DNA of 62,678 bases, counting the filler. It is 15 parts of 15 records of this genome, joined end to end, with 100 filler letters (N's around TTAATTAATTAA, not from the genome) between each part and the next. Parts side by side here need not be neighbours in the genome. Positions count along the whole stretch, not along the records: positions 25,250 to 29,197 come from SRR9670534_345; 14 more parts are not named here. One strand, given 5' to 3'. The notes below the pieces were generated by a model. It made no database searches, was not told the DNA's origin, and worked only from the letters and a program-made list of their open reading frames with translations. Each line of letters opens with the position of its first letter. Positions within the stretch are counted from its first letter, which is position 1. Of the stretch, positions 1,002 to 55,856 are shown piece after piece. The translations under genes were made by a program, and so were the position numbers.

Positions 1002-1921
1002 AACTGTTCTTCAATTTTATTGTCTATGTGGTGAAAACATCAGATGTTAACATTGATAACATAGACAAAATCAATGCTGATCTACATGGTATGAATCTCA
1101 AGGTAAGAATGATATAAATTGTACAAAGTATTGCAATGGATTTTACTTAGACTACTGATGGTGTTCCATTGGCTTGCAAGGTAAAAGATGAGTCAACATA
1201 TTCCTTGATAAGTGTTTCTACAATCGATCCTCCTTCCATACATGTTCTTCCTTCTAAATGGCTGAAGAATGTTATTCATCAACAAGGCAAACCTCCAAAA
1301 ACTCAGTCTTCTTCAACTAAATCTACAAGGTCAGCTACATCTACTAAATCAATTACATCTACTAAATCACCTACATCTACTAAGTTCACTACATCTACTA
1401 AATCAACTACATCTACTAAATCAACTAAATCTACTACTAGACCAACTACATCTACAAGATCAGCTACATCTACTAAATCAACTACATCTACTATGCCAAC
1501 TAAATCTACTAAATTAACTACATCTACTAGATCAACTAAATCTACTAGATCAACTGCATCTAATAGACCAACTATAGCAATTACATCAACTACATCTTTT
1601 AGTAAACAACAAAAGACTAAAACTCCAGCAAATACTAGTGATACCACAAAACAAATTGATGTGACCAATTCTGATGGCTTGACAGATTCTACAAAGCATC
1701 AAAGGCCTGAAAATACAGAACCATATACTACTGAGCACCAAAAGCCTGAAAGTACAAAATCAGATGCTGATCAGCCCCAAAAAACTAAAAATACAAAAAA
1801 ACATACTAAACACAGAAGAGTGTCTACTACAGAAGTAAACTCAAAGTTTGGTGAGGTAGTTAATAATGCAACAGGGATCCATGTCATGTTGGCCACACTC
1901 TGTCTTTTCTTCAGCTTTTAA
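1002..1921 (+). CDS. Ser/Thr-rich mucin-like surface protein, probably GPI-anchored (3' exons)
   Basis: Exons at about 1002-1102 and 1151-1921 with AG/GT boundaries; KSTTST-type repeats; hydrophobic C-terminus NNATGIHVMLATLCLFFSF. Confidence 0.65.
1315..1600 (+). repeat. Coding minisatellite with 9/18-bp units (ACATCTACTAAATCAACT-like)
   Basis: Repeated units are directly visible and explain the overlapping L/N/Q/H-rich and V/D/L-rich shadow ORFs. Confidence 0.85.
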
Positions 1922-7084: not shown

Positions 7085-8081
7085 CTTTGGTTATTCGTTG
7101 GGTTTATTTCACAAGAAGGTATGCGGTCATAAAGATGGTCAAGCAACATTTTATCGTGCAGATCGATTTGAGTTGGTCAAAAGTGAAGCTGTTGTTCTCA
7201 GTGAATCTTTTCATGAGGTAGTAACTTAATATTCAATGAATACCTAGTTATTATCACTGTACATATTATTTATTCTACTACATTTACAAAACTAAACTGT
7301 CTTTTAGGATGTTTACTCAGAGTCTAATAAAATGTCAGAATCAGATAGAGAAAAGTTGAAGATGTATTTGGATGAAGTGGACACAGTTTTGGTTATGACA
7401 AAATTTGAGTGCAAGGTTACAGGTATCCCTGTTTCAGTTGGAAATATCCATATTGCATGGGGGGAATGGAAAACTCACGATAAACATGCCGTACAAACTG
7501 CAAAAGCAGTAGAGCAGTTGTTGAAGTTCAATGGATCACCTATTCATCCTCATGTCTTGTGTGGAGATTTTAACTGTACTCCAACTTCTCCTGCATATCA
7601 TGTAATGTCTAATTCAGGGATCCAAGAACAGGATCGCAAACTATTACTAGAAATGAATTTTTTGCACAGAGATGACGGTTCAGTAAGTTCTGTGATGGAA
7701 ATTCCGCAAAAATTGTTTATTGAATTTAGGGCTTATCCCTTTTGGAAGCACTTCCGGGATGTTTTAGCCATCGATCCAATGGTATTCGGAGTTCCTCGAA
7801 AACAGTTTTTGTAAGATTATTTTGCCATTCTTTTATAATGATTTGAATATGTAATATTGCAGGGTAGTGAACCAAAGTTAACAACATGTTTGGTGCAACG
7901 TGACAAAAGTGTTGCTCTCATGTGTCTCGACTACATTTGGTACAGTTCAAATAATTTGCAAGTTTTGGGTATGCTGAAGTTCCCATCATCTGCAGAAGAT
8001 ATATTGTATCAAACTGCATTACCAAATGATTATTTTCCCTCCGATCATATAAGTTTGAAGGCTGAATTAACATTTTTTTGA
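7085..8081 (+). CDS. EEP-family nuclease/phosphatase (CCR4/nocturnin/Angel/PDE12-like), 3' part
   Basis: DGQATFYR, LCGDFN, LDYIWYS and PNDYFPSDHISL motifs over 4 exons. Confidence 0.85.
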
Positions 8082-25249: not shown

Positions 25250-28200
25250 ACGAATTTCCTTTTCCATTTTTAACATGTACCTAATTTTGTATTTAAAGGT
25301 CATTTGATAATGATCGCTGTATTCTACGAATTTTGTTAAAATTTTGAAAGCCCTACTGTATTTCTGATTGATTATTATCCAATCTATCGAACATGATCCC
25401 GGTCTGGTACTTAGAGGAGATTTGTTGACCAATGCTGCACTATTCATAGCTGACATCAGGCCAGCACTTTCTTGTCCATGACTATCGGAGTTAAAGTCTC
25501 CTAAAATTAAATGTATTTCTACATTTTTCAATATACAAATGTTATGTAATTCTTGCCATACTGGTAAAACTTCTTCTTGTTTGGTTTTTGGTTTTACATA
25601 CCAACAAGAAACGCAAATTGCTTTTGTTCTAACAGTTAGCATTTGGATCTTTGCATCTGAATAATTGTGTATCATCTCGATTGTTCCTAGATTCTTTCTA
25701 ATTAAAATCATCACGCCCCCATGTGCATCATCTGGTCTGGAACACATTTTGTTGTCATGAGTTGTAAATTGATTGTTATCAGTTGGTCTGGTCCAAGTTT
25801 CTGTAAGGAAAATGATATCATTTGCATTCATTAGATCATGAACGTCTGCCGTTTTTTTCTTCAATGATCTAATATTAGCATAGGCACAATTAAGAACTTT
25901 GCCTTGCGGTTTAGTACCACTGTGTACTGGATACGCCAGTATATTTCGTTTAAACTCACTGCTAGATAAGCTAGTCAACATAAGTATTTTACTGTTGAAT
26001 AAATTTGCATGCAATGCTGTTTCAATAAGGTCACGTGACCTTGGCAGATTCTGATAAATTTTACAATCATACCCTATTGGGTATTGCGCGAAGTTCGAGT
26101 AAACATACAAAAAATTTATTTCAAAATTTAGCATTAGATAATCAAATTCAATTACATTTCGAATTCCTTTGCAGAAATTGTCATTCATAAATTTAAACTT
26201 GAATAATAATAATGCTTGCCTATTGCAATTAGTATTATCGTAATAAAATTTCAAAAAAAAACAAAAATTAAACACAATATGTATTGGAGAAACGGCTTTG
26301 CAAATCAATGAGAGAACAGGTTCTTTTGTTCGCCACTTCAGTGATATCTTTTGCGTCTTGCCACTGAAAGTAAATTTTGTTATATGCAAAGTTTTATACA
26401 AAATTTGTAATAAATTACCTTGAACTTTGCGATCAGTCACTCCTCTTTTCCTTATTTCTTGTTGTCGGATTTCTTCCTTCAATCTTTCATTCTCTTGGAT
26501 CAATAGCGATTTAATCGCATTCCAACTGTGGTTATTGATCAGTAGAAATGCATTACAGTTAAATGGTGCATTTATCAAGTACCTAAGTTTCCCAACTTTG
26601 CCGGGCAAACTTTCATTTAGCTTTCAGTCCATGTCATTGATGGTAGCAATATTTTCGCTTTTGAAAATATCCAAGTAGACAACTCTACCATTTAGCTTTG
26701 GTCTTTTGCTGATTTCTTTCAGGGTGTCATTGGCCGTACTGTATTTGAAATTATCTCCTGAAGGAGAGACCCAACCTGCCATCAAGTAACATTTGATCTT
26801 CAAGGTACTATTTCGGTCTAGGAAAATTTCGAAAGCTTTTCCAACCAGTTCAGCGATTTCGATCTTTAGCTCGTTCAGATCCAAAAATAACGTCAGTGGC
26901 ATGAAGAAGATGATGGCTCTCAATTTTGATCCAGTTACATTTAGGTTGGATAATAGCAGGTAGAGACCATGCCAGTCTATCAGGTCTCGATGAATGATAG
27001 AAATTTCTTGGAGAAAGCTGTTGGACAAGGTGTTGTTTGCTTTTCTGCTCAAATGCCAAATGTCGGTGACAATTAGGTACGTCTTGTCCCGTTGGATGAG
27101 AAAATCAGACAAGACGGACGGATGCCATCTGTCCTCCTCTTCCTCATCTGAGGTCAAGACCTCCCAAGGCATGTCACCGAACCTACTGTTGGTATTGCTC
27201 CATACTTCGAACTTTTTCGGATTCTTGCTTTGCTGCATCAGCATGTAGAACGTTTTTTCAAATTGTCTTCTTTTTTCTGTTTACTTGTCATCGAGACCAA
27301 GTAAAGATCTTCTCAAGACATCTTCTTTCACGTGAGAAACCAATTTCGCAGCATTCGATTTCGCTTTCAGAAGCAGATACACAGACAGTTCACCACTTTC
27401 GAATTTCTCTTCATAATTTTTCATTGTATATTCATTCAGCACCTTATTTTTCGACAATTCAGTAAATAACGAAGTCATGCCCATTTTGGTTATGAAATAC
27501 GCCAAGATGTTGGTGTTCTTTTGTAAAAAGACAACTGTTTTACCAAGCCCAATAACTTGCCCTTTAGCAAACTTCTGCTTTTTATCTTCTTCTGTCAGTT
27601 GATTTTCGAAGCTATTGAGTAATTCACCTTCTTCGAGACTTAACCGTTTTGCAACTTCTGACAATCGTGCCTTTTTTGGTGGATCACTAGTGAATGTACA
27701 TTCGCTAATTAATGCAAAATTATTATTAGAATTATTGTTACCTTTCCATAGCACTTGTTGGTATGATGAGATTTCCAAATTCGTCCATTTTTTCGCTTTT
27801 TCCGTTGATCTGGTCACTGATACTGATTTGTGCTGTATAATGCTGTAGTATTTATACACTAACGAAGTGGTTATGAAAAAACCTGTTCTCCCCGCGATTT
27901 GCAAGTCTGGTACGTGTACAATTTCAAGTTTTATGCACTGAAACGAAGTTTGATTATCAATAATAATTGATAAATTGACTAACCTGTTTTTCTCAGCCCA
28001 CAAGCGCATTCTCTACCTCAAAAATTCTATGTATTCGTGGTTGATGTACGGAATACGAATTTAATTCTTCAGATCGGTAATTTCACCATTTGTTAATTCT
28101 CTTTGTGGAAAGAGCTTATCCATTTGGAGCAACACAAATCTTGTTAAGTTCTCTTCTCTTTCTTGCCATCCATAGGTAACTTCGTACCAGGTTATAACAT

Positions 28201-29197
28201 TCATTTTTAACGAAAAAACCCTTTCATAGAATTCTTGATTGTACTTTCCATTGTAAAGCTTCAGGTGTTCATCATAATCGTGGTGATTTTTGAGAACAAA
28301 ATCTTCCCAGATGATGTTTTTAGCCATTGTTCTGTTTGATCTATCCAAATATCTTTGTACCATGTACATTGCAAATTCATGATATCGATTTTGTTGCATC
28401 ATTTCCATGTTGTACACATAGATGTCGCTTCCTTTTTTCGGCAGTATGCATGGCTTTGTATAGGTACAGTGTACCGTTTGAACCGTCTCTTGGCTAATTG
28501 GCAAAATAGTGGTTTTAGCAAGATTTTTACGACCAATATCATGGTACGTCATTAATAGATTGCGTACAGTACAACAAATGCCTATTACAGGCTTACCTGA
28601 GATAGGTACATACCTATATGTGAAATACATATCAGGGTATAGGACGAAAATTGGATTAAACTTAAAATTATGGATTTTTTCTGAACCCTTGACAAATTTG
28701 AAACAGCGTTTTGGGTAGTCGAGAGCAAATATGCCATAGAAATTGATTCTGCGTGGATAAAAAATTTTTCGTTGTCCCTTATAAAATGACAAATCATTGA
28801 AAGTCATTACAGTACCTGCGTAGTGTATATTACCTAGCTGTACAGCATGTTTTATTGTACCAAACGGTGATTTTGGGTTAGATATCATCCGTGACTTATA
28901 CACAGTGCTACCAAAGTTGCTACAAATTCGATTGACAGGTAAACATGAATTTTTGAACTTGTTATCACCCCACAAGTGGGCAATAATAGGAAAATATGTA
29001 TTTTCATACCTATATTTCCAATAGGATAATGTTTCACAGCAAAATTTGGTAGCTAGGTAGTCACAGTGTGCACCAAGGTGCCTCAGTAAATTAGTAAGCA
29101 TAAGCATAATTATGTGGGAAATAATAATCTGTAAAACTGCTTCGAAAAGAATAACAATAATCCGAAATAATCCGAAACGTCACAAGCTAATTTGTTT
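25250..29197 (-). mobile_element. LINE-like element 5' half: one long frame ending in an APE/EEP endonuclease, with point stops, truncated by contig ends
   Basis: YANIRSL, DIIFLTETW, GGVMILIR, ILGDFN, IDWI and YSDH at about 25290-25900; the four track ORFs are all in one frame. Confidence 0.7.
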
Positions 29198-32963: not shown

Positions 32964-33147
32964 NNNNNNNNNNNNNNNNNNNNNNNNNNNNNNNNNNNNN
33001 NNNNNNNTTAATTAATTAANNNNNNNNNNNNNNNNNNNNNNNNNNNNNNNNNNNNNNNNNNNNATCATTCAGAGTACGGATCTGCAGTAGAGTCAAATTA
33101 TTTCAATTTTTGTATAAATTATTAATCCATACTTTATTTGTTATAGA

Positions 33148-33736
33148 TAAGTCGGGAAAACAGCGAGAAAGAGAAAGACAAAAAGAGATAGCATTCTTGG
33201 AAGCTCAGGTGTATAAGTTCTCTGAACTTTTGTCAGAACAACGACACGATAGCAAAGAAAATGTTCAAAGGAAACAAGCCCGAACGGTAGCTGAACGAGA
33301 AGAAAGTGACGATGAAGAAATCGTTGAAGTAGAATCCGATGATGAAGACAATGAAGTTATCTATAATCCCAAGAATCTACCTTTGGATTGGGATGGAAAG
33401 CCGATACCCTATTGGCTCTATAAGTTACATGGGCTAAACATGTACTTCAAGTGCGAAATTTGCGGCAACCAGACGTACAGAGGGCCCAAAGTATTCCAAC
33501 GACATTTTTCGGAATGGCGTCACGCTCACGGAATGCGTTGTTTAGGTATTCCGAATACAGCGCATTTTGCAAATGTAACATTAATAGCCGATGCAAAGGC
33601 ACTCTGGGAGAAGTTGAAGAAGCAAAAGTCAGCTGAAAGTTGGAAACCAGAAGCTGAGGAAGAATATGAAGACTCAATTGGAAATGTGATTAGCAAAAAG
33701 ATTTTTGAAGACTTAAAAAGACAAGGATTGTTGTAA
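33148..33736 (+). CDS. SF3A3: Splicing factor 3a subunit 3 (Prp9/SF3a60), last exon
   Basis: YNPKNLPLDWDGKPIPYWLYKLHGL, CEICGN..Y.G...F.RHF.EWRHAHGMRCLGIPNT and DLKRQGLL. Confidence 0.97.
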
Positions 33737-49677: not shown

Positions 49678-50220
49678 NNNNNNNNNNNNNNNNNNNNNNN
49701 NNNNNNNNNNNNNNNNNNNNNTTAATTAATTAANNNNNNNNNNNNNNNNNNNNNNNNNNNNNNNNNNNNNNNNNNNNAATACTACATTATAACCACTCAA
49801 AATATCACACTACTCAATTTTTATTGAAAAACACACAATGTAATGCATTTTGGTTTTTAATTAAAACCATTATCAAGCTAATTTAATTTAATTTAATTTA
49901 GTTTTATTGTCTCACTGTTGCAGCATACAATTACAAAAAGGAGAAGCATTATGATATGGCATATCTAATAGTAAATCAAACATTTAATTGTCTCTTATTA
50001 CAAGGAAAAATGGATAGAGATTATGATAGCCTCTTATTGTCCAATAGTTGAAAATAATTAATAAACAGTGATTGAACACCAACAAAAGAATGTTATAATA
50101 CAAGTAGAACAATAACGTTAAACAATAATAATAAAAAGAATATTCTTGTACTACAACTCTATTAAATATCAAGCAAGTAATTGTACTATGGAATAATTGC
50201 TACAACAGCATCTTATAAAA

Positions 50221-52224
50221 TTTAAGGTGGGTCCAAGTCATTTCTCATCTGAAGATTGATATTAGTCTTCATCTTTTCATGCTTTCTATTGTTATAGTTA
50301 GCTGTGTGTTTAAATTGTAACCAGTTTTCAGCATCATTTTGTTGGAATACCCATCTCCATTTTTATCTTGAATCTGGTATGTTATGGTAAATCTAGCTGA
50401 TGGATCTGTAAGCCTTACCTGAATCATCATCAGCTTTAGTTTGTTGTTGGGAGAGCCATTCTTTTTTCACTTCTTCAAGAGAGAGAAGAGCTTTTCGGAG
50501 CTATTTTTGTTGCTCTTCTTCTGGAAGGGAATGCAATTCTTCCTAGTTTCTCACAGATTGTCGCTGCAATATGTTTTCATTCAAAATATGAAGTGCTTTT
50601 TTAGTAATAATACATGAAGTATTAATTTGCAGCTTTAAAGTGTAATTCCTAGAATTTTTTGTTAACATCATTCTTGTGTATGGTGTTCTTACCTTATTCA
50701 CAAATGCTTTCAAAATCCATTTTGCCTTAATCCATGGCAGCCAATCAGACATCGGTATGACTGATAATATCGATCTTGATATTGTAGAATGTGCTCTTCT
50801 GGGCATCCCCAAAACTCTTTTTGTTACTCCATTAAATGACTTGTCAAGGATTCTCAATTCTGATCCAGTCCATTCAAAGGCAGTGTTTCCATAATGGAAT
50901 AAAACATGAGCCTTAAAAATGTTGGTGTAATCAAAAAAGGGCATGAATTCTTTAACATTTTTTAACATAGATAATCCCTTACGTGTTCGTTTTCTAATAA
51001 TGTCATTCTGTATGTCACCAGTAGGATTCTGATCAATGTATCCTCCTAAATATTTCAACCATTCAACATTTTTAATAATACTATTTTCAACACGTATACT
51101 AAACTTACCAGTGGCAATCTTTTCTTTTGGTACAATGCAAATCATTTGTGTTTTATCTCCATTCACCAACAATTTCAGATCTTTCATAGTTTTCATGAAA
51201 ACTTCCAGAAAAGGCTCAAGTCAATTTATTATTACTTGTATAGAATCACCAGTCATGTAGATAAGAGTATCATCTGCATATATTTGCCCCTTGTTGCAAT
51301 TACATGGTTCAAAACTATTATTTTTGCAGTGTTCACATTCTTCCATTTCCCTTATTAATGGAAGCGTATAAATATTATAGAGCACCGGTCCAAGTTTTGA
51401 ATCTTGAGGTGCTCCAATATCAATATCCATTTCATCAGATTCCATATCCATATGTTTAACTTTCAGCTTTCTGTCCTTCAAGTAGGATCATATCAGGGCA
51501 ATTAATTGTCTATCGACATTAGCTCTAATTAATTCTTTCAACAGCAAATTGGGCTCAAGGCAATCAAATGCTTTTGATGAGTCGAGGGAAATAATAACAA
51601 TTGCTTTATTTTGGCATTTAGCCACTTCTATGGTATAATGGATGTTTAATAAAGCATCAATCATACCTGTAAATCTTTTGTATGCAAACTGCTTTTCTGA
51701 AAAAAGAAAATCTACCAAGTATGGCTGGAGGTCATCAAGAATCAGTTGTTCTAAAAATAGTCCAGAAACAGGCAATAGCGAAATTGGCCTGTAATTTTTT
51801 ATAACATCTTTTGCTCCACTTTTAAAAAGTGGAGTTACTTGAGAAATTTTCCATTGTTCAAGAAATACCAAGTCATTGTAAGCTTTCTGCATTAATTCCA
51901 TTAGCAGATCTTGGTTTTCATCAAAGAAATCTTTCATCACAGTCCATGGTGGTTGATCATAAGGAACAGCCTTCGAACCTTTCAATGATTGTAAAATTTT
52001 CTTCCATTTTCTACCTTTCAATAATCGATAAAATGTCAGTTCAGGAATTTTAATAGGTTCAGAATCTAAATAGATGCCCCTATTGCATTGCATTTGTTTT
52101 ATGCATGTCGAATAATATTTTGCTATGTAATTTACCATAGGGTGGCCTACTACTTTTTCTCCATTTTTCATCATCAAAAATTTTATCTCAACTTGCTGCT
52201 TTGATTTCTGCAATGTGATCAATT
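50221..52224 (-). mobile_element. Non-LTR retrotransposon RT (CR1/L2-like), pseudogenised by in-frame stops
   Basis: WK...VTPLFK, NYRPISLL, QFAY, LDSSKAFD, GAPQDS.LGP.LY, YADD, N..KT and KYLG; three track ORFs in one frame. Confidence 0.92.
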
Positions 52225-52680
52225 NNNNNNNNNNNNNNNNNNNNNNNNNNNNNNNNNNNNNNNNNNNNTTAATTAATTAANNNNNNNNNNNNNNNNNNNN
52301 NNNNNNNNNNNNNNNNNNNNNNNNGATAAAGTGAAATTTGTCTAATCCATTTGATATATGTACAGGATTAATTAACACAACCTTCTAGAATTTTGCTTTC
52401 ATTAATAATTAATGCATTCATGAGAAGATTTCAAAAATTGGTTGTTAAACCAAAAAATAAAAATTTGAAAAAGTGGAACATAGAAAAACAATTTAATAAT
52501 AATAAGAGAAATTCCATTTAAGAACAACAACTACACCTAATACGTATTGCTGTACAGCAGAAGCCACTTTATTATTAATGTTATTGTATATACATGTATA
52601 GTATGTAGTACATGCCTTGGGGAACAGAAATAATGTTGTATTAATAATAAGCAGTTGTTACATTATCGATCCCAGATATA

Positions 52681-54708
52681 TTGTACATGGAGGTAATAGA
52701 AAGCCTGAAAATGGATCAAAAATCTGTGAACAAAAATATGAAAGGACGCAGTAAATGTCTAACAGAGATATTTGCATACCTGAGAAAGCGTAAGCCTAAG
52801 AAGTTACCTGCAATGATAACAGATGATGAGCAGAACTCCTACACTAATGCTTTCGATAAAGCTTGTGCTTTTACCAAACACTTCTTGAACGTGTATAGGA
52901 ACTGCCCACTGGACCAAAATTTCATTGAGGAAATTGCAAGAACATGTATGACAGAAGATAACTTTTATTACCCATCCCAAGCTGAGATTATAAGATATAT
53001 TAAACAAATAGATGTCAGTAGCGCTTCTGGAATTGATCATTTAAGTGGCAAATTAATTAAAATACTGCAAAGTAAATTAGCGCTAGTGATTCAATCCTTT
53101 TTCATAATAATTTACAAAACAAATAATTTTCCTAAAATCTGGAAACTTGGAATTATACATCCAATTCCTAAGGGCGGTAGTGCTCAAGACATCAATAACT
53201 ACTGTCCTATAACTCTCTTACCAGTAATTAGTAAGATAATTGAGAAAATATTCCTCCATAGACTAGAAAAATTAGCACCTGCCAGCACCATGGTTGAGCA
53301 ATACGGCTTTAGAGAACATTCTTCAACGCATATAGCATTATTTGATTTCCAAAATACTCTGGTGGCAAAGTTGGAAGAACAAAAAACGGTAGTCATAGTA
53401 GTTTATCTTGACTACCGTAAAGCATTTGATACAGTTAAACATCAATCAATAATTCAGAGAATGAAAGAGTTGGGCATGAAAAAAGAAATGGTACAGATGC
53501 TTGCATCCTACCTGACCGACAGAATCAGTGGGGTTATGGTTGATGGTGAATATGGAGATTTTGGCCATTGTAATAGCGGTGTTGGGCAAGGGGCTCCATT
53601 GAGCCCAAAATTATTTAATTTGACAACCTACCCCATTGCGATGTTGGTTAGCAGGGGCATCATCTATTTGTATGAAGACGACGGGAAATTGATATATTCC
53701 TTTCCAAAAGATATGGGAATAGATAAGATTGGGAAAATAATTTTGGATGAACTTGGTAATGTGGCTTCAGAAGCAGAAAAAATCGGGTTGTCATTAAATT
53801 TGAAAAAATGCTCAAAAGTAACGTACAGGGGAGACAAGAATACCCCTATATCTATATTAGGTGAGCCAGTAACCGAAAAACCCTTGCAAAGGGATTTAGG
53901 AGTTCACTATTCACCAACATTGCATTTTAGTGAGCAAATCGATATTTCTATTACGAAAGCCAATGGTGCTTATTACGGTTCCATGCATCTATTAGACACT
54001 GAAATAGATGCTCTAGATAATGCTAACATGTACAAGCAACTTGCTCAAAGTAACCTATTGTATGGCACAGAAGTGATGCCAATTTCGAAAAATGATATGC
54101 AAAAACTTGTACGCCTAGAAAAAGGCATAATAACAAGGATTTTGAATCACTTGGTTGAATATGTAGACTGCTGCCTGCGCTTCAATATGTTACCAATACC
54201 TTTGGAAGTATTGAAGCGTAGGATATTAATGCTACATGATATTGTAAATAACAACATAAATAGCTCTATCTCAAGTTTATGTGGTACACTTGTAGATGGT
54301 ACATGTCTCAGAATAGGGGAAGACTTCTGTAATACCACCAGAGCCAAATCATCGATGCTAAATGAGACAATTCGATCAGTCAACAGAATGCAAAAATCTC
54401 TTGGATTTGGAATGAATCTTAGTTTTCGCAATTCCTTGCAAGAATATTTGGAGATTTACACAAAAGAATTTTTCTGCTTAGATAAGCCATGTACTTGGAA
54501 GCTTGTATGTGACTGTTCTGATTGTACGCTAACCAGGAAATTGCTGCCCGAGATTTTATTGCCCAAAGAACCCAGAGCCCTGAAGAATTCAGCAGAACTC
54601 AAAGCCAGAAGAGAAGATGACGAAGAAATGTTTCAGCAGTCTGAGAAGCTCCTGAAGATGTCACAAGAACTACTGCAACTATCTCAAAATCAAACACTCC
54701 TCAATTAA
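52681..54708 (+). mobile_element. Non-LTR retrotransposon RT ORF, 5'-truncated, no endonuclease seen
   Basis: SGID, WK...I.PIPK, NYCPITLLP, QYGFR, YLDYRKAFDTV.H, SGVGQG.PLSP.LF, YEDD and RDLGV; C-terminal Cys cluster. Confidence 0.92.
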
Positions 54709-55856
54709 GGCCCTTGTTACTAAGCATTCCATTTATAATCGATAATGTCAATATACAAGTATACTACTTTTAGAATTGTAATTATTTTTTACTTTACAAT
54801 GTTTTTCACACAAAGTTTACTTTATTTCTATACCTGTCTTGATTAATGGTTTACTTGTCGCATAACTAATATGCATTGTTTACGTAAACGCAATTTATGC
54901 TTAATTCTTGTTTTAGCGTTGCATAGGTAAATTGCTCAATGGATCGATATAAATCTTGTCTGTAAGTATTGGTTTTGGAAAATTCGCTAAATCAATAAAA
55001 ATCTCACTTTTTAATACCTGATGGAGAAATTCTCTCAATCGATAAAAATCTCAACTTACAATTGATCCAGCGGGTTTCACAAAATCAATACAATCCTAGC
55101 AATACCAGATATACCTCCTTATAATACCTATATCTAACATGAATGTTATGCAGGATATAAGATATATTGTATACTAATATGATTAGTGAAACAATTTTTT
55201 GTTCAGATTGTATATAAATTTAATTAGCGGAGAAATAATCAATACATTTCTCGCAATTTTACCCTGGATTTAATCAATATTTTTCTCGCATTTTTTATCT
55301 TATTATTTCTAGGATAATATGTAGCTTGGCTATAGAATATACTATTTTTAAAGGTCTCTCTACGCGCAACTAGAACCAAATTATGTTTTTTTTCAATAAT
55401 TCATACTGTGAGTGCTTCTTTTTATTTGAGGATTGTTAGTTATACATAATATATCACTATAAATATACACTGTGATTAGTTAATCAAATTGTTTTATTTC
55501 AATACGACATTTTCATATTATATAGTATGAAAGCAATACCACAGTTTCATTTCACAGATAGGTAATTATAAGAATAGCTGCGAAAATATTAACCAGCTTA
55601 TTCCTATGATTGAACAACAATAATTAGCATAGTTAAAAATCAAAAATTAGAAAAAGCATTCATATTGGCCAGAAAGGGGCAAAAGCNNNNNNNNNNNNNN
55701 NNNNNNNNNNNNNNNNNNNNNNNNNNNNNNTTAATTAATTAANNNNNNNNNNNNNNNNNNNNNNNNNNNNNNNNNNNNNNNNNNNNATAATTAATAATTA
55801 TAATTATTAATTATTATTATGATAATAAAAACGTGAAAATTAATAATCATGAATAC

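Follow-up and report, generated by a model that had tools for sequence, protein, structure and literature searches.

What kind of genetic element places an apurinic/apyrimidinic endonuclease (APE) behind some thousand codons that match no described family, in one and the same interrupted reading frame? The question is raised by a stretch of DNA of 62,678 bases, here called the window, which consists of 15 contigs (2.4–8.2 kb) and is not one molecule; artificial spacers, each composed of N44, TTAATTAATTAA and N44, separate the contigs. The feature under study is one entire contig, positions 25250–29197 (3,948 bases), with N spacers on either side. Because the contigs were joined by artificial spacers, those that adjoin each other in the window are not genomic neighbours. 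The best explanation, to which we assign a probability of about one half, is that the contig represents the 5′ part (3.9 kb) of a non-long-terminal-repeat (non-LTR) retrotransposon, in a copy that is slightly decayed and probably non-functional. Such an element would resemble the long interspersed nuclear elements (LINEs) and carry an APE of the CR1 type.

One interrupted reading frame

Read from position 29197, one minus-strand frame of the contig comprises 1,316 codons with exactly five stops: TGA at codon 6 (29180–29182), TAA at codon 379 (28061–28063), TAG at codon 395 (28013–28015), TAA at codon 639 (27281–27283) and TGA at codon 858 (26624–26626). These are referred to below as TGA6, TAA379, TAG395, TAA639 and TGA858. 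The five remaining frames of the contig hold 46, 78, 92, 97 and 115 stops, and shuffled versions of the contig (n = 500) have a mean of 99.1 (s.d. 9.2, minimum 74), confirming that a frame with five stops is far beyond chance. Four large open reading frames (ORFs) abut within this frame with no frameshift at all, and internal repeats were not detected in it. The original prediction for this DNA had described a minus-strand frame of about 1,300 codons with five stops and no frameshift, and the count above agrees with it; the three junction strings that it quoted are all present, and the TGA that it placed at about 29180 was found there. Its remark that each stop is one transition away from CAA, CAG, CGA or TGG applies to any stop codon and is therefore uninformative.

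All features of the frame lie on the minus strand. The probable 5′ leader (codons 1–30, 29108–29197) is open to the contig end and contains TGA6; the 24 open codons ahead of ATG31 are not significant, as 4,497 of 20,000 shuffles were also free of stops. ORF-A, an orphan of 348 amino acids (aa; codons 31–378, 28064–29107), ends at TAA379. It is followed by a probable native inter-ORF spacer (28010–28063), made up of TAA379, 15 codons, TAG395 and one further codon, and then by the ATG (28007–28009) of ORF-B, a second orphan of 242 aa (codons 397–638, 27284–28009) that ends at TAA639. Segment C (codons 640–857, 26627–27280), whose first ATG is codon 652 (27242–27244), ends at TGA858. The pre-APE stretch (codons 859–1101, 25895–26623) combines a short, charged, helix-like run with a part rich in F, Y and N, and leads into the APE-type endonuclease (codons 1102–1298, 25304–25894). 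The frame closes with an AT-rich tail (codons 1299–1316, 25250–25303; GC content 0.19 at first and 0.12 at second codon positions), which is open at the contig end. Directly after the APE, this tail contains AG/GTACAT, readable as a splice donor.

The endonuclease and its relatives

Exo_endo_phos (PF03372) is the sole Pfam family above threshold on the entire read-through frame (E = 7.9e-9; 36 bits, the cut-off being 24.5), with residues 1107–1280 aligned to profile positions 3–206 of 225; PF14529 appeared below threshold only. The match to a known family is confined to the last ~200 codons of the frame and bears out the APE endonuclease of the original prediction. In an alignment (A2) of a 234-aa piece containing the APE with three database proteins, P0002, P0003 and P0004, the APE keeps all 25 of the 25 invariant columns, including N-I-R-S-L, E-T, Y, G-D-F-N-x-D, I-D and D-H. 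Numbered along the 234-aa piece, invariant positions include N26, E51, Y118, D152, N154, D190 and D213-H214, among which are what we take to be the equivalents of the catalytic and metal-binding residues of the L1 endonuclease. The profile built from the four sequences matched LINE-1 endonuclease chains of the Protein Data Bank (PDB) end to end in five of its six matches (E = 2e-11 to 9e-9), the sixth being a cellular AP lyase (E = 1.7e-5); two of its rows are LINE APEs, and the match to the LINE-1 structures leans on those rows. Judged by the Pfam, BLASTP, alignment and profile comparisons of sequence, the identification of the endonuclease as an APE is correct.

The APE is very divergent. 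Among 496 candidates that share words with it (723–2,303 aa), one only reached E ≤ 0.001. This protein, P0002 (796 aa), contains Pif1/AAA_30 helicase families and a C-terminal APE, which is the layout of Helentrons. The longer candidates (n = 231) added two at E ≤ 10: P0003, a partial nematode protein in which the APE runs into a reverse transcriptase (RT)-like YADD region, and P0004, an APE–RT LINE protein of 1,138 aa that carries RVT_1. BLASTP scores against the APE are 57.8 bits for P0002 (31% over 213 aa), 48.5 for P0003 and 39.3 for P0004. Two of the three relatives found (P0003 and P0004) are LINE proteins, and the motif variants FLTETW, GDFNSDS and IDWII are common to the APE and P0003 and absent from P0002. 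The Helentron endonuclease is described as closest to the endonucleases of CR1 LINEs (PMC4067079). Since the APEs of Helentrons are nearest to those of CR1 LINEs, likeness to both helicase–APE and LINE proteins suggests a CR1-like APE and leaves undecided whether the host element is a LINE or of Helentron type.

Two further observations concern APE-bearing sequences. Just before its APE, at residues ~84–93, P0004 has the string GDIHPNPGP, which fits the 2A motif GD(V/I)ExNPGP as given in PMC3708506. Elsewhere in the window, an open stretch of 168 codons (7308–7814, plus strand) has a sub-threshold Exo_endo_phos match (19.4 bits; cut-off 24.5) and is probably another APE remnant; tblastn found it unrelated to the APE of the contig at E < 10.

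Probable native and secondary stops

Beyond TGA858 the frame remains open for 145 codons without an ATG, the first methionine being codon 1004. Not one of 20,000 shuffles of this stretch was free of stops, (1 − p)^n amounts to 7e-7, and 27 stops fall in the other two sense frames. The 145 codons were once translated as the continuation of segment C. Because they are open and lack an ATG, TGA858 broke a single ORF: it interrupts one of at least 665 codons that runs from ATG652 and ends in the APE, and it is certainly a secondary nonsense mutation. The long N-terminal fusion proposed for the APE in the original prediction accordingly stands for codons 640–1316, which at the least were one ORF. 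TGA6 in the leader is probably a secondary nonsense mutation too.

A different picture is given by TAA379 and TAG395, which are 16 codons apart, with ATG397 two codons after TAG395. Under random nonsense this arrangement has a chance of ~2.5% (spacing) multiplied by ~6% (ATG), that is ~0.1–0.2%, a post hoc estimate that rests on the 37 methionines among the 1,316 codons. The stretch from TAA379 up to ATG397 looks like a native inter-ORF spacer. An intron across the stops was considered and rejected: the lone GT...AG bracket near TAG395 spans 44 bases, leaves TAA379 in place and breaks the frame. Between TAA639 and ATG652 there are 12 open codons, which are uninformative.

The window has a GC content of ~30% and a CpG observed/expected ratio of 0.59. 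It reads as a fragmented assembly of an AT-rich, CpG-depleted animal genome, and the ratio at this GC content suggests that the genome is methylated. Usual indel rates would lead one to expect several frameshifts alongside as many stops as the contig has. A control is provided by a LINE RT copy at 50546–52222 (minus strand; contig 49778–52224), in which two TGAs split a frame of 559 codons into three abutting pieces, none of them shifted in frame, and in which the RVT_1 match (E = 5.3e-22) spans both TGAs. Stop densities are alike, at 2 per 559 codons in the control copy and 4 per 1,286 codons in the frame of contig 25250–29197. As the control copy shows the same pattern, stops free of frameshifts are no argument against decay; they are ordinary decay in this CpG-depleted genome. 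Of the seven stops that the element and the control copy have together, four are TGA, and TGA858 and TGA6 fit the kind of stop that CpG decay produces. The element itself has an intermediate CpG observed/expected ratio (0.79) and keeps 10 CGA codons beside its two TGAs.

An alternative genetic code in which TGA is a sense codon was rejected on two grounds, the lack of TGA in a 685-codon RT ORF of the window and the fit of the TGAs to CpG decay. The natural ORF ends that were checked in the window are all TAA or TAG (n = 3 only). The sense-strand excess of A in the element resembles that of two RT-bearing contigs. The control contig, 49778–52224, was also considered as a continuation of the element; GC content at third codon positions (GC3; 0.29 versus 0.28) and base composition are like those of the APE part of the element, but the two do not overlap, and continuity is not claimed.

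Orphan coding region upstream of the endonuclease

Ahead of the APE lie ~1,050–1,100 codons that are coding-like, share its frame and belong to no described family. An exhaustive phmmer search with codons 30–1100 against 1.84 billion representative proteins yielded no credible relative; the lone match, a 967-aa tandem-repeat protein, was judged spurious from its sequence. The word-indexed protein search with codons 30–860 gave none at E ≤ 0.001 among 7,999 scored candidates. Comparison of the upstream segments with Pfam (E ≤ 10), NCBIfam, PHROGs and PDB returned noise only, and a 1,071-aa upstream query against PDB retrieved only an unrelated affibody (E = 1.2). ORF-A had no usable match in the Atlas, where segment C gave only polyketide-synthase leads of Rossmann type (0.75–0.84, below the level at which a match is more than a lead). 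The region is unusually long and truly orphan.

Models made with AlphaFold2 without an alignment have a predicted local distance difference test (pLDDT) score of 32.9 for ORF-B with segment C and 29.3 for ORF-A, every residue being below 50. In these low-confidence models, the C-terminal half of ORF-B appears as helices and segment C as an alternation of strands and helices. A motif scan of the frame found no CCHC, PHD, 2A, GDS, GxND, Walker A or HxH pattern; neither NPGP nor D[VI]E.NPG occurs in it, and Pfam searches for helicase and Rep families returned none at E ≤ 1 over the entire frame or at E ≤ 10 over the upstream segments. In setting about 1,050 aa ahead of the APE, some 600 of them unassigned, and in seeing no helicase motifs, the original prediction is in accord with these searches.

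Two of its more specific assignments fared worse. The strings quoted for an SGNH-like region exist, yet segment C matched no Pfam family at E ≤ 10, SGNH/GDSL included, and no PDB entry, in a copy of PDB not checked for the solved ZfL2-1 esterase. GDS and G.ND occur nowhere in the frame, and D..H strings are found only at codons 689, 712 and 1156, none of them near the end of segment C. For the proposed coiled coil there are at most ~20 charged residues, and no window of 28 residues passed a crude test. The background invoked for the SGNH assignment is right, in that esterase-type ORF1 proteins are described in CR1, RTEX and Penelope elements, with a coiled coil preceding the esterase (PMC3905857); its application to this contig found no support apart from the strand–helix alternation of the low-confidence model. 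Segment C is set apart by its codon composition, with a GC3 of 0.52 ± 0.03, every other segment of the frame lying at 0.28–0.37. The break may mean that segment C arose separately, for instance as captured cargo.

Proposed organization and competing explanations

In the intact element, ORF-A would have stood first as an ORF of its own, and a spacer of 51 bases containing two in-frame stops would have come after it. The ORF for the endonuclease would have started far upstream of the APE, at codon 652 at the latest and possibly at ATG397, giving the APE an orphan N-terminal extension of at least 450 aa that comprises segment C and the pre-APE stretch and includes a low-complexity part. If LINEs are a guide, the proteins of ORF-A, ORF-B and the upstream region may have had ORF1-like roles in RNA packaging or accessory functions; the APE would make a nick in the target DNA, where an RT encoded past the end of the contig would then copy the RNA. 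The mobile, retroelement status of the sequence is one that we infer from the type of its APE.

Several results weigh against a LINE-like element. Pfam detects no RVT family on the contig, which ends 20 codons after the SDH motif, and the retroelement of the original prediction thus goes beyond what the contig holds. The 62.7-kb window yielded no second copy (best E = 0.14), and no termini were seen. Pattern matches turned up in metagenome contigs (52 and 54) and in viral contigs (6, 13 and 0), but tblastn confirmed none of the former, and the latter were not confirmed either. Among the relatives of the APE it is a C-terminal APE, that of a Pif1-helicase protein and not of a LINE, that scores best, and a PDB search with the APE by itself gave nothing at E ≤ 1. 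If ORF-A, ORF-B and the APE ORF were independent, they would fall in one frame with a chance of ~1 in 9. The ~1,070 codons upstream of the APE are more than in any case described in the literature seen; no precedent for at least 450 aa ahead of an APE, or for ~1,070 upstream codons, was found in literature searches that had other aims. Finally, the possible splice donor right after the APE would not fit a LINE and, together with the AT-rich tail, keeps readings other than a LINE alive. A more tentative reading, less likely than not, is that the contig samples an undescribed family of APE-bearing mobile elements, in which novel domains totalling at least 450 aa are fused in front of the APE and one or two orphan ORFs come before them, with about 1,050 codons of orphan cargo in all. 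Such a family might be a new LINE lineage with a much enlarged 5′ coding region or a non-retrotransposon element that took up a CR1-type APE unaccompanied by a helicase.

The stops divide two of the alternatives from this organization. The original prediction put forward, as one option, a single polyprotein of ~1,300 codons or more, uniting the orphan regions, the APE and presumably an RT, in which every internal stop is secondary. All pieces do share one frame without a frameshift, TGA858 is certainly secondary, and the density of stops equals that of the decayed control RT copy; as about 4–5% of substitutions in the frame create a stop, ~2% divergence would be enough to produce them. We nevertheless consider the polyprotein unlikely, because the arrangement of TAA379, TAG395 and ATG397, improbable by random nonsense (~0.1–0.2%), is typical of an inter-ORF spacer and looks like a native ORF boundary, and no 2A motif is present to give separate products from one ORF. 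The converse proposal, that all stops are native and delimit four same-frame ORFs expressed by programmed stop-codon readthrough or AUG-less reinitiation, would account for the 145 open codons after TGA858, which need translation across or just past the stop. TGA is the leakiest stop, and AUG-independent initiation of ORF2 was reportedly described for human L1 by Alisch and colleagues in 2006. To our knowledge, though, GAC TGA AAG is not a readthrough context, and the natural ORF ends in the window are TAA or TAG, in a sample of three only. With two TGAs inside the conserved RT domain of the control LINE copy and no frameshift there, no special mechanism is needed, which makes the programmed readthrough suggested in the original prediction dispensable and native use of all stops very improbable.

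Other alternatives concern the origin of the APE. The element might not be a retrotransposon at all, having captured a CR1-type APE as the C-terminal domain of a novel protein, either as a Helentron derivative in which Rep and helicase were lost or replaced or as an undescribed class. It is the helicase–APE protein P0002 that provides the sole APE match at E ≤ 0.001 among the 496 candidates and the top BLASTP score (57.8 bits), the AT-rich tail after SDH contains a possible splice donor, and Helentrons are described as carrying extra ORFs and captured genes (PMC4067079). We regard this origin as rather improbable, given that the Helentron helicase directly precedes the APE in the same ORF (in P0002, and as described in PMC4067079), whereas here 1,070 codons ahead of the APE contain no helicase, Rep, Walker A or HxH. 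The frame also stays open for 20 codons past SDH, where P0002 ends 9 residues past it. A lineage-specific host gene with a domesticated APE, now an inactivated pseudogene, or as a variant an assembly chimera, would agree with the lack of a second copy in the window, metagenome or viral contigs, with an orphan status typical of taxon-restricted genes and with the GC3 of segment C (0.52 versus 0.28–0.37), which hints at a composite origin. Little credence can be given to a host gene, however. The contig is intron-free over 3.9 kb and contrasts with the short host open stretches of the window, in which only 23 stop-to-stop stretches of at least 130 aa exist elsewhere, several of them derived from transposable elements. 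The APE motifs are of retrotransposon type, and the profile prefers the L1 endonuclease (E = 2e-11) over the cellular enzyme (1.7e-5). Four or five stops indicate no present selection, and one 62-kb window says little on copy number.

Other contents of the window

The remaining contigs contain pieces of eukaryotic host genes and of transposons, as identified with Pfam; a search of the window against Rfam gave no match. The clearest host-gene piece is a complete SF3a60/Prp9 C-terminal domain in an exon at 33065–33736 (plus strand; E = 1.4e-55), with a TAA TAA double stop where the domain ends. Weaker matches on these contigs are to P-type ATPase, ANF-receptor and pentaxin families, and two RVT_1 reverse transcriptases and a weak APE fragment are also present.

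On contig 52325–55686, an unbroken ORF of 685 codons (52651–54705, plus strand) has a full RVT_1 match (E = 1.8e-26) and a TAA end. It shows 29% identity to P0004 over 208 aa and may represent the 3′ portion of a young LINE from a different family. Within an open stretch at 1151–1921 (plus strand), 26 overlapping repeat copies with a spacing of 9 bases occupy positions 1278–1655. They amount to a three-codon periodicity in an open frame of 256 codons, with no Pfam match there.

Significance and comparison with known systems

The element is of APE type and probably LINE-like. The 5′ modules of LINEs, that is ORF1 and whatever precedes the APE, are their least understood and most changeable part. 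If the contig stands for a real family, an orphan extension of 450 aa and further orphan ORFs would widen the range of accessory proteins in APE-type elements, and segment C, whose codon composition deviates, could be an instance of cargo capture. A lone dead copy would instead be ordinary genomic debris. Either way, in-frame TGAs without frameshifts in this CpG-depleted genome should be taken as normal decay rather than as evidence of recoding.

ORF1 and ORF2 of human LINE-1 share a frame, and between them lies a short spacer that holds two in-frame stops. The element would repeat this layout in its first and next ORFs. It differs in that ORF-A and ORF-B are similar to nothing, and the L1 endonuclease was matched by the four-sequence profile only and not by the APE alone.

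With Helentrons the element has in common that the top relative of its APE is a helicase–APE protein and that the APE is far from the N terminus in both. No Rep, zinc finger or Pif1 helicase, however, was found upstream in the element.

Closer parallels for protein ahead of an APE come from LINEs. ORF1 proteins of up to 656 aa (L2A-1_NVe) are described, as are ORF1-type domains or unassigned tracts of 90–115 aa ahead of the APE within ORF2 (PMC3708506). In the single-ORF APE-type LINEs with 2A presented by Odon et al. 2013 (PMC3708506), extra protein is encoded in frame upstream of the APE and within the same ORF, as in the element. The tracts described there are ~90–115 aa long or contain a PHD, and are set off by 2A, whereas the element has no NPGP or PHD pattern and an extension four or more times longer.

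LINEs of the CR1/L2 group generally have an ORF2 that starts at or near the APE, in contrast to the at least 450 aa that precede the APE in the APE ORF of the element. Unlike them, the element has ~1,070 codons upstream, divided among two or three ORFs, and no RT, SGNH/GDSL match or catalytic Ser and His motifs were seen in it. As in these LINEs (ZfL2-1, L2A-1_NVe), a retrotransposon-type APE is combined with a long and rapidly evolving coding region that precedes it on the same strand. A further likeness may lie in the order of the upstream parts: in the low-confidence model of the element, a helical region comes before a segment of alpha/beta-like character, and in the esterase ORF1 proteins of the CR1/L2 group, as described in PMC3905857, a coiled coil comes before the esterase.

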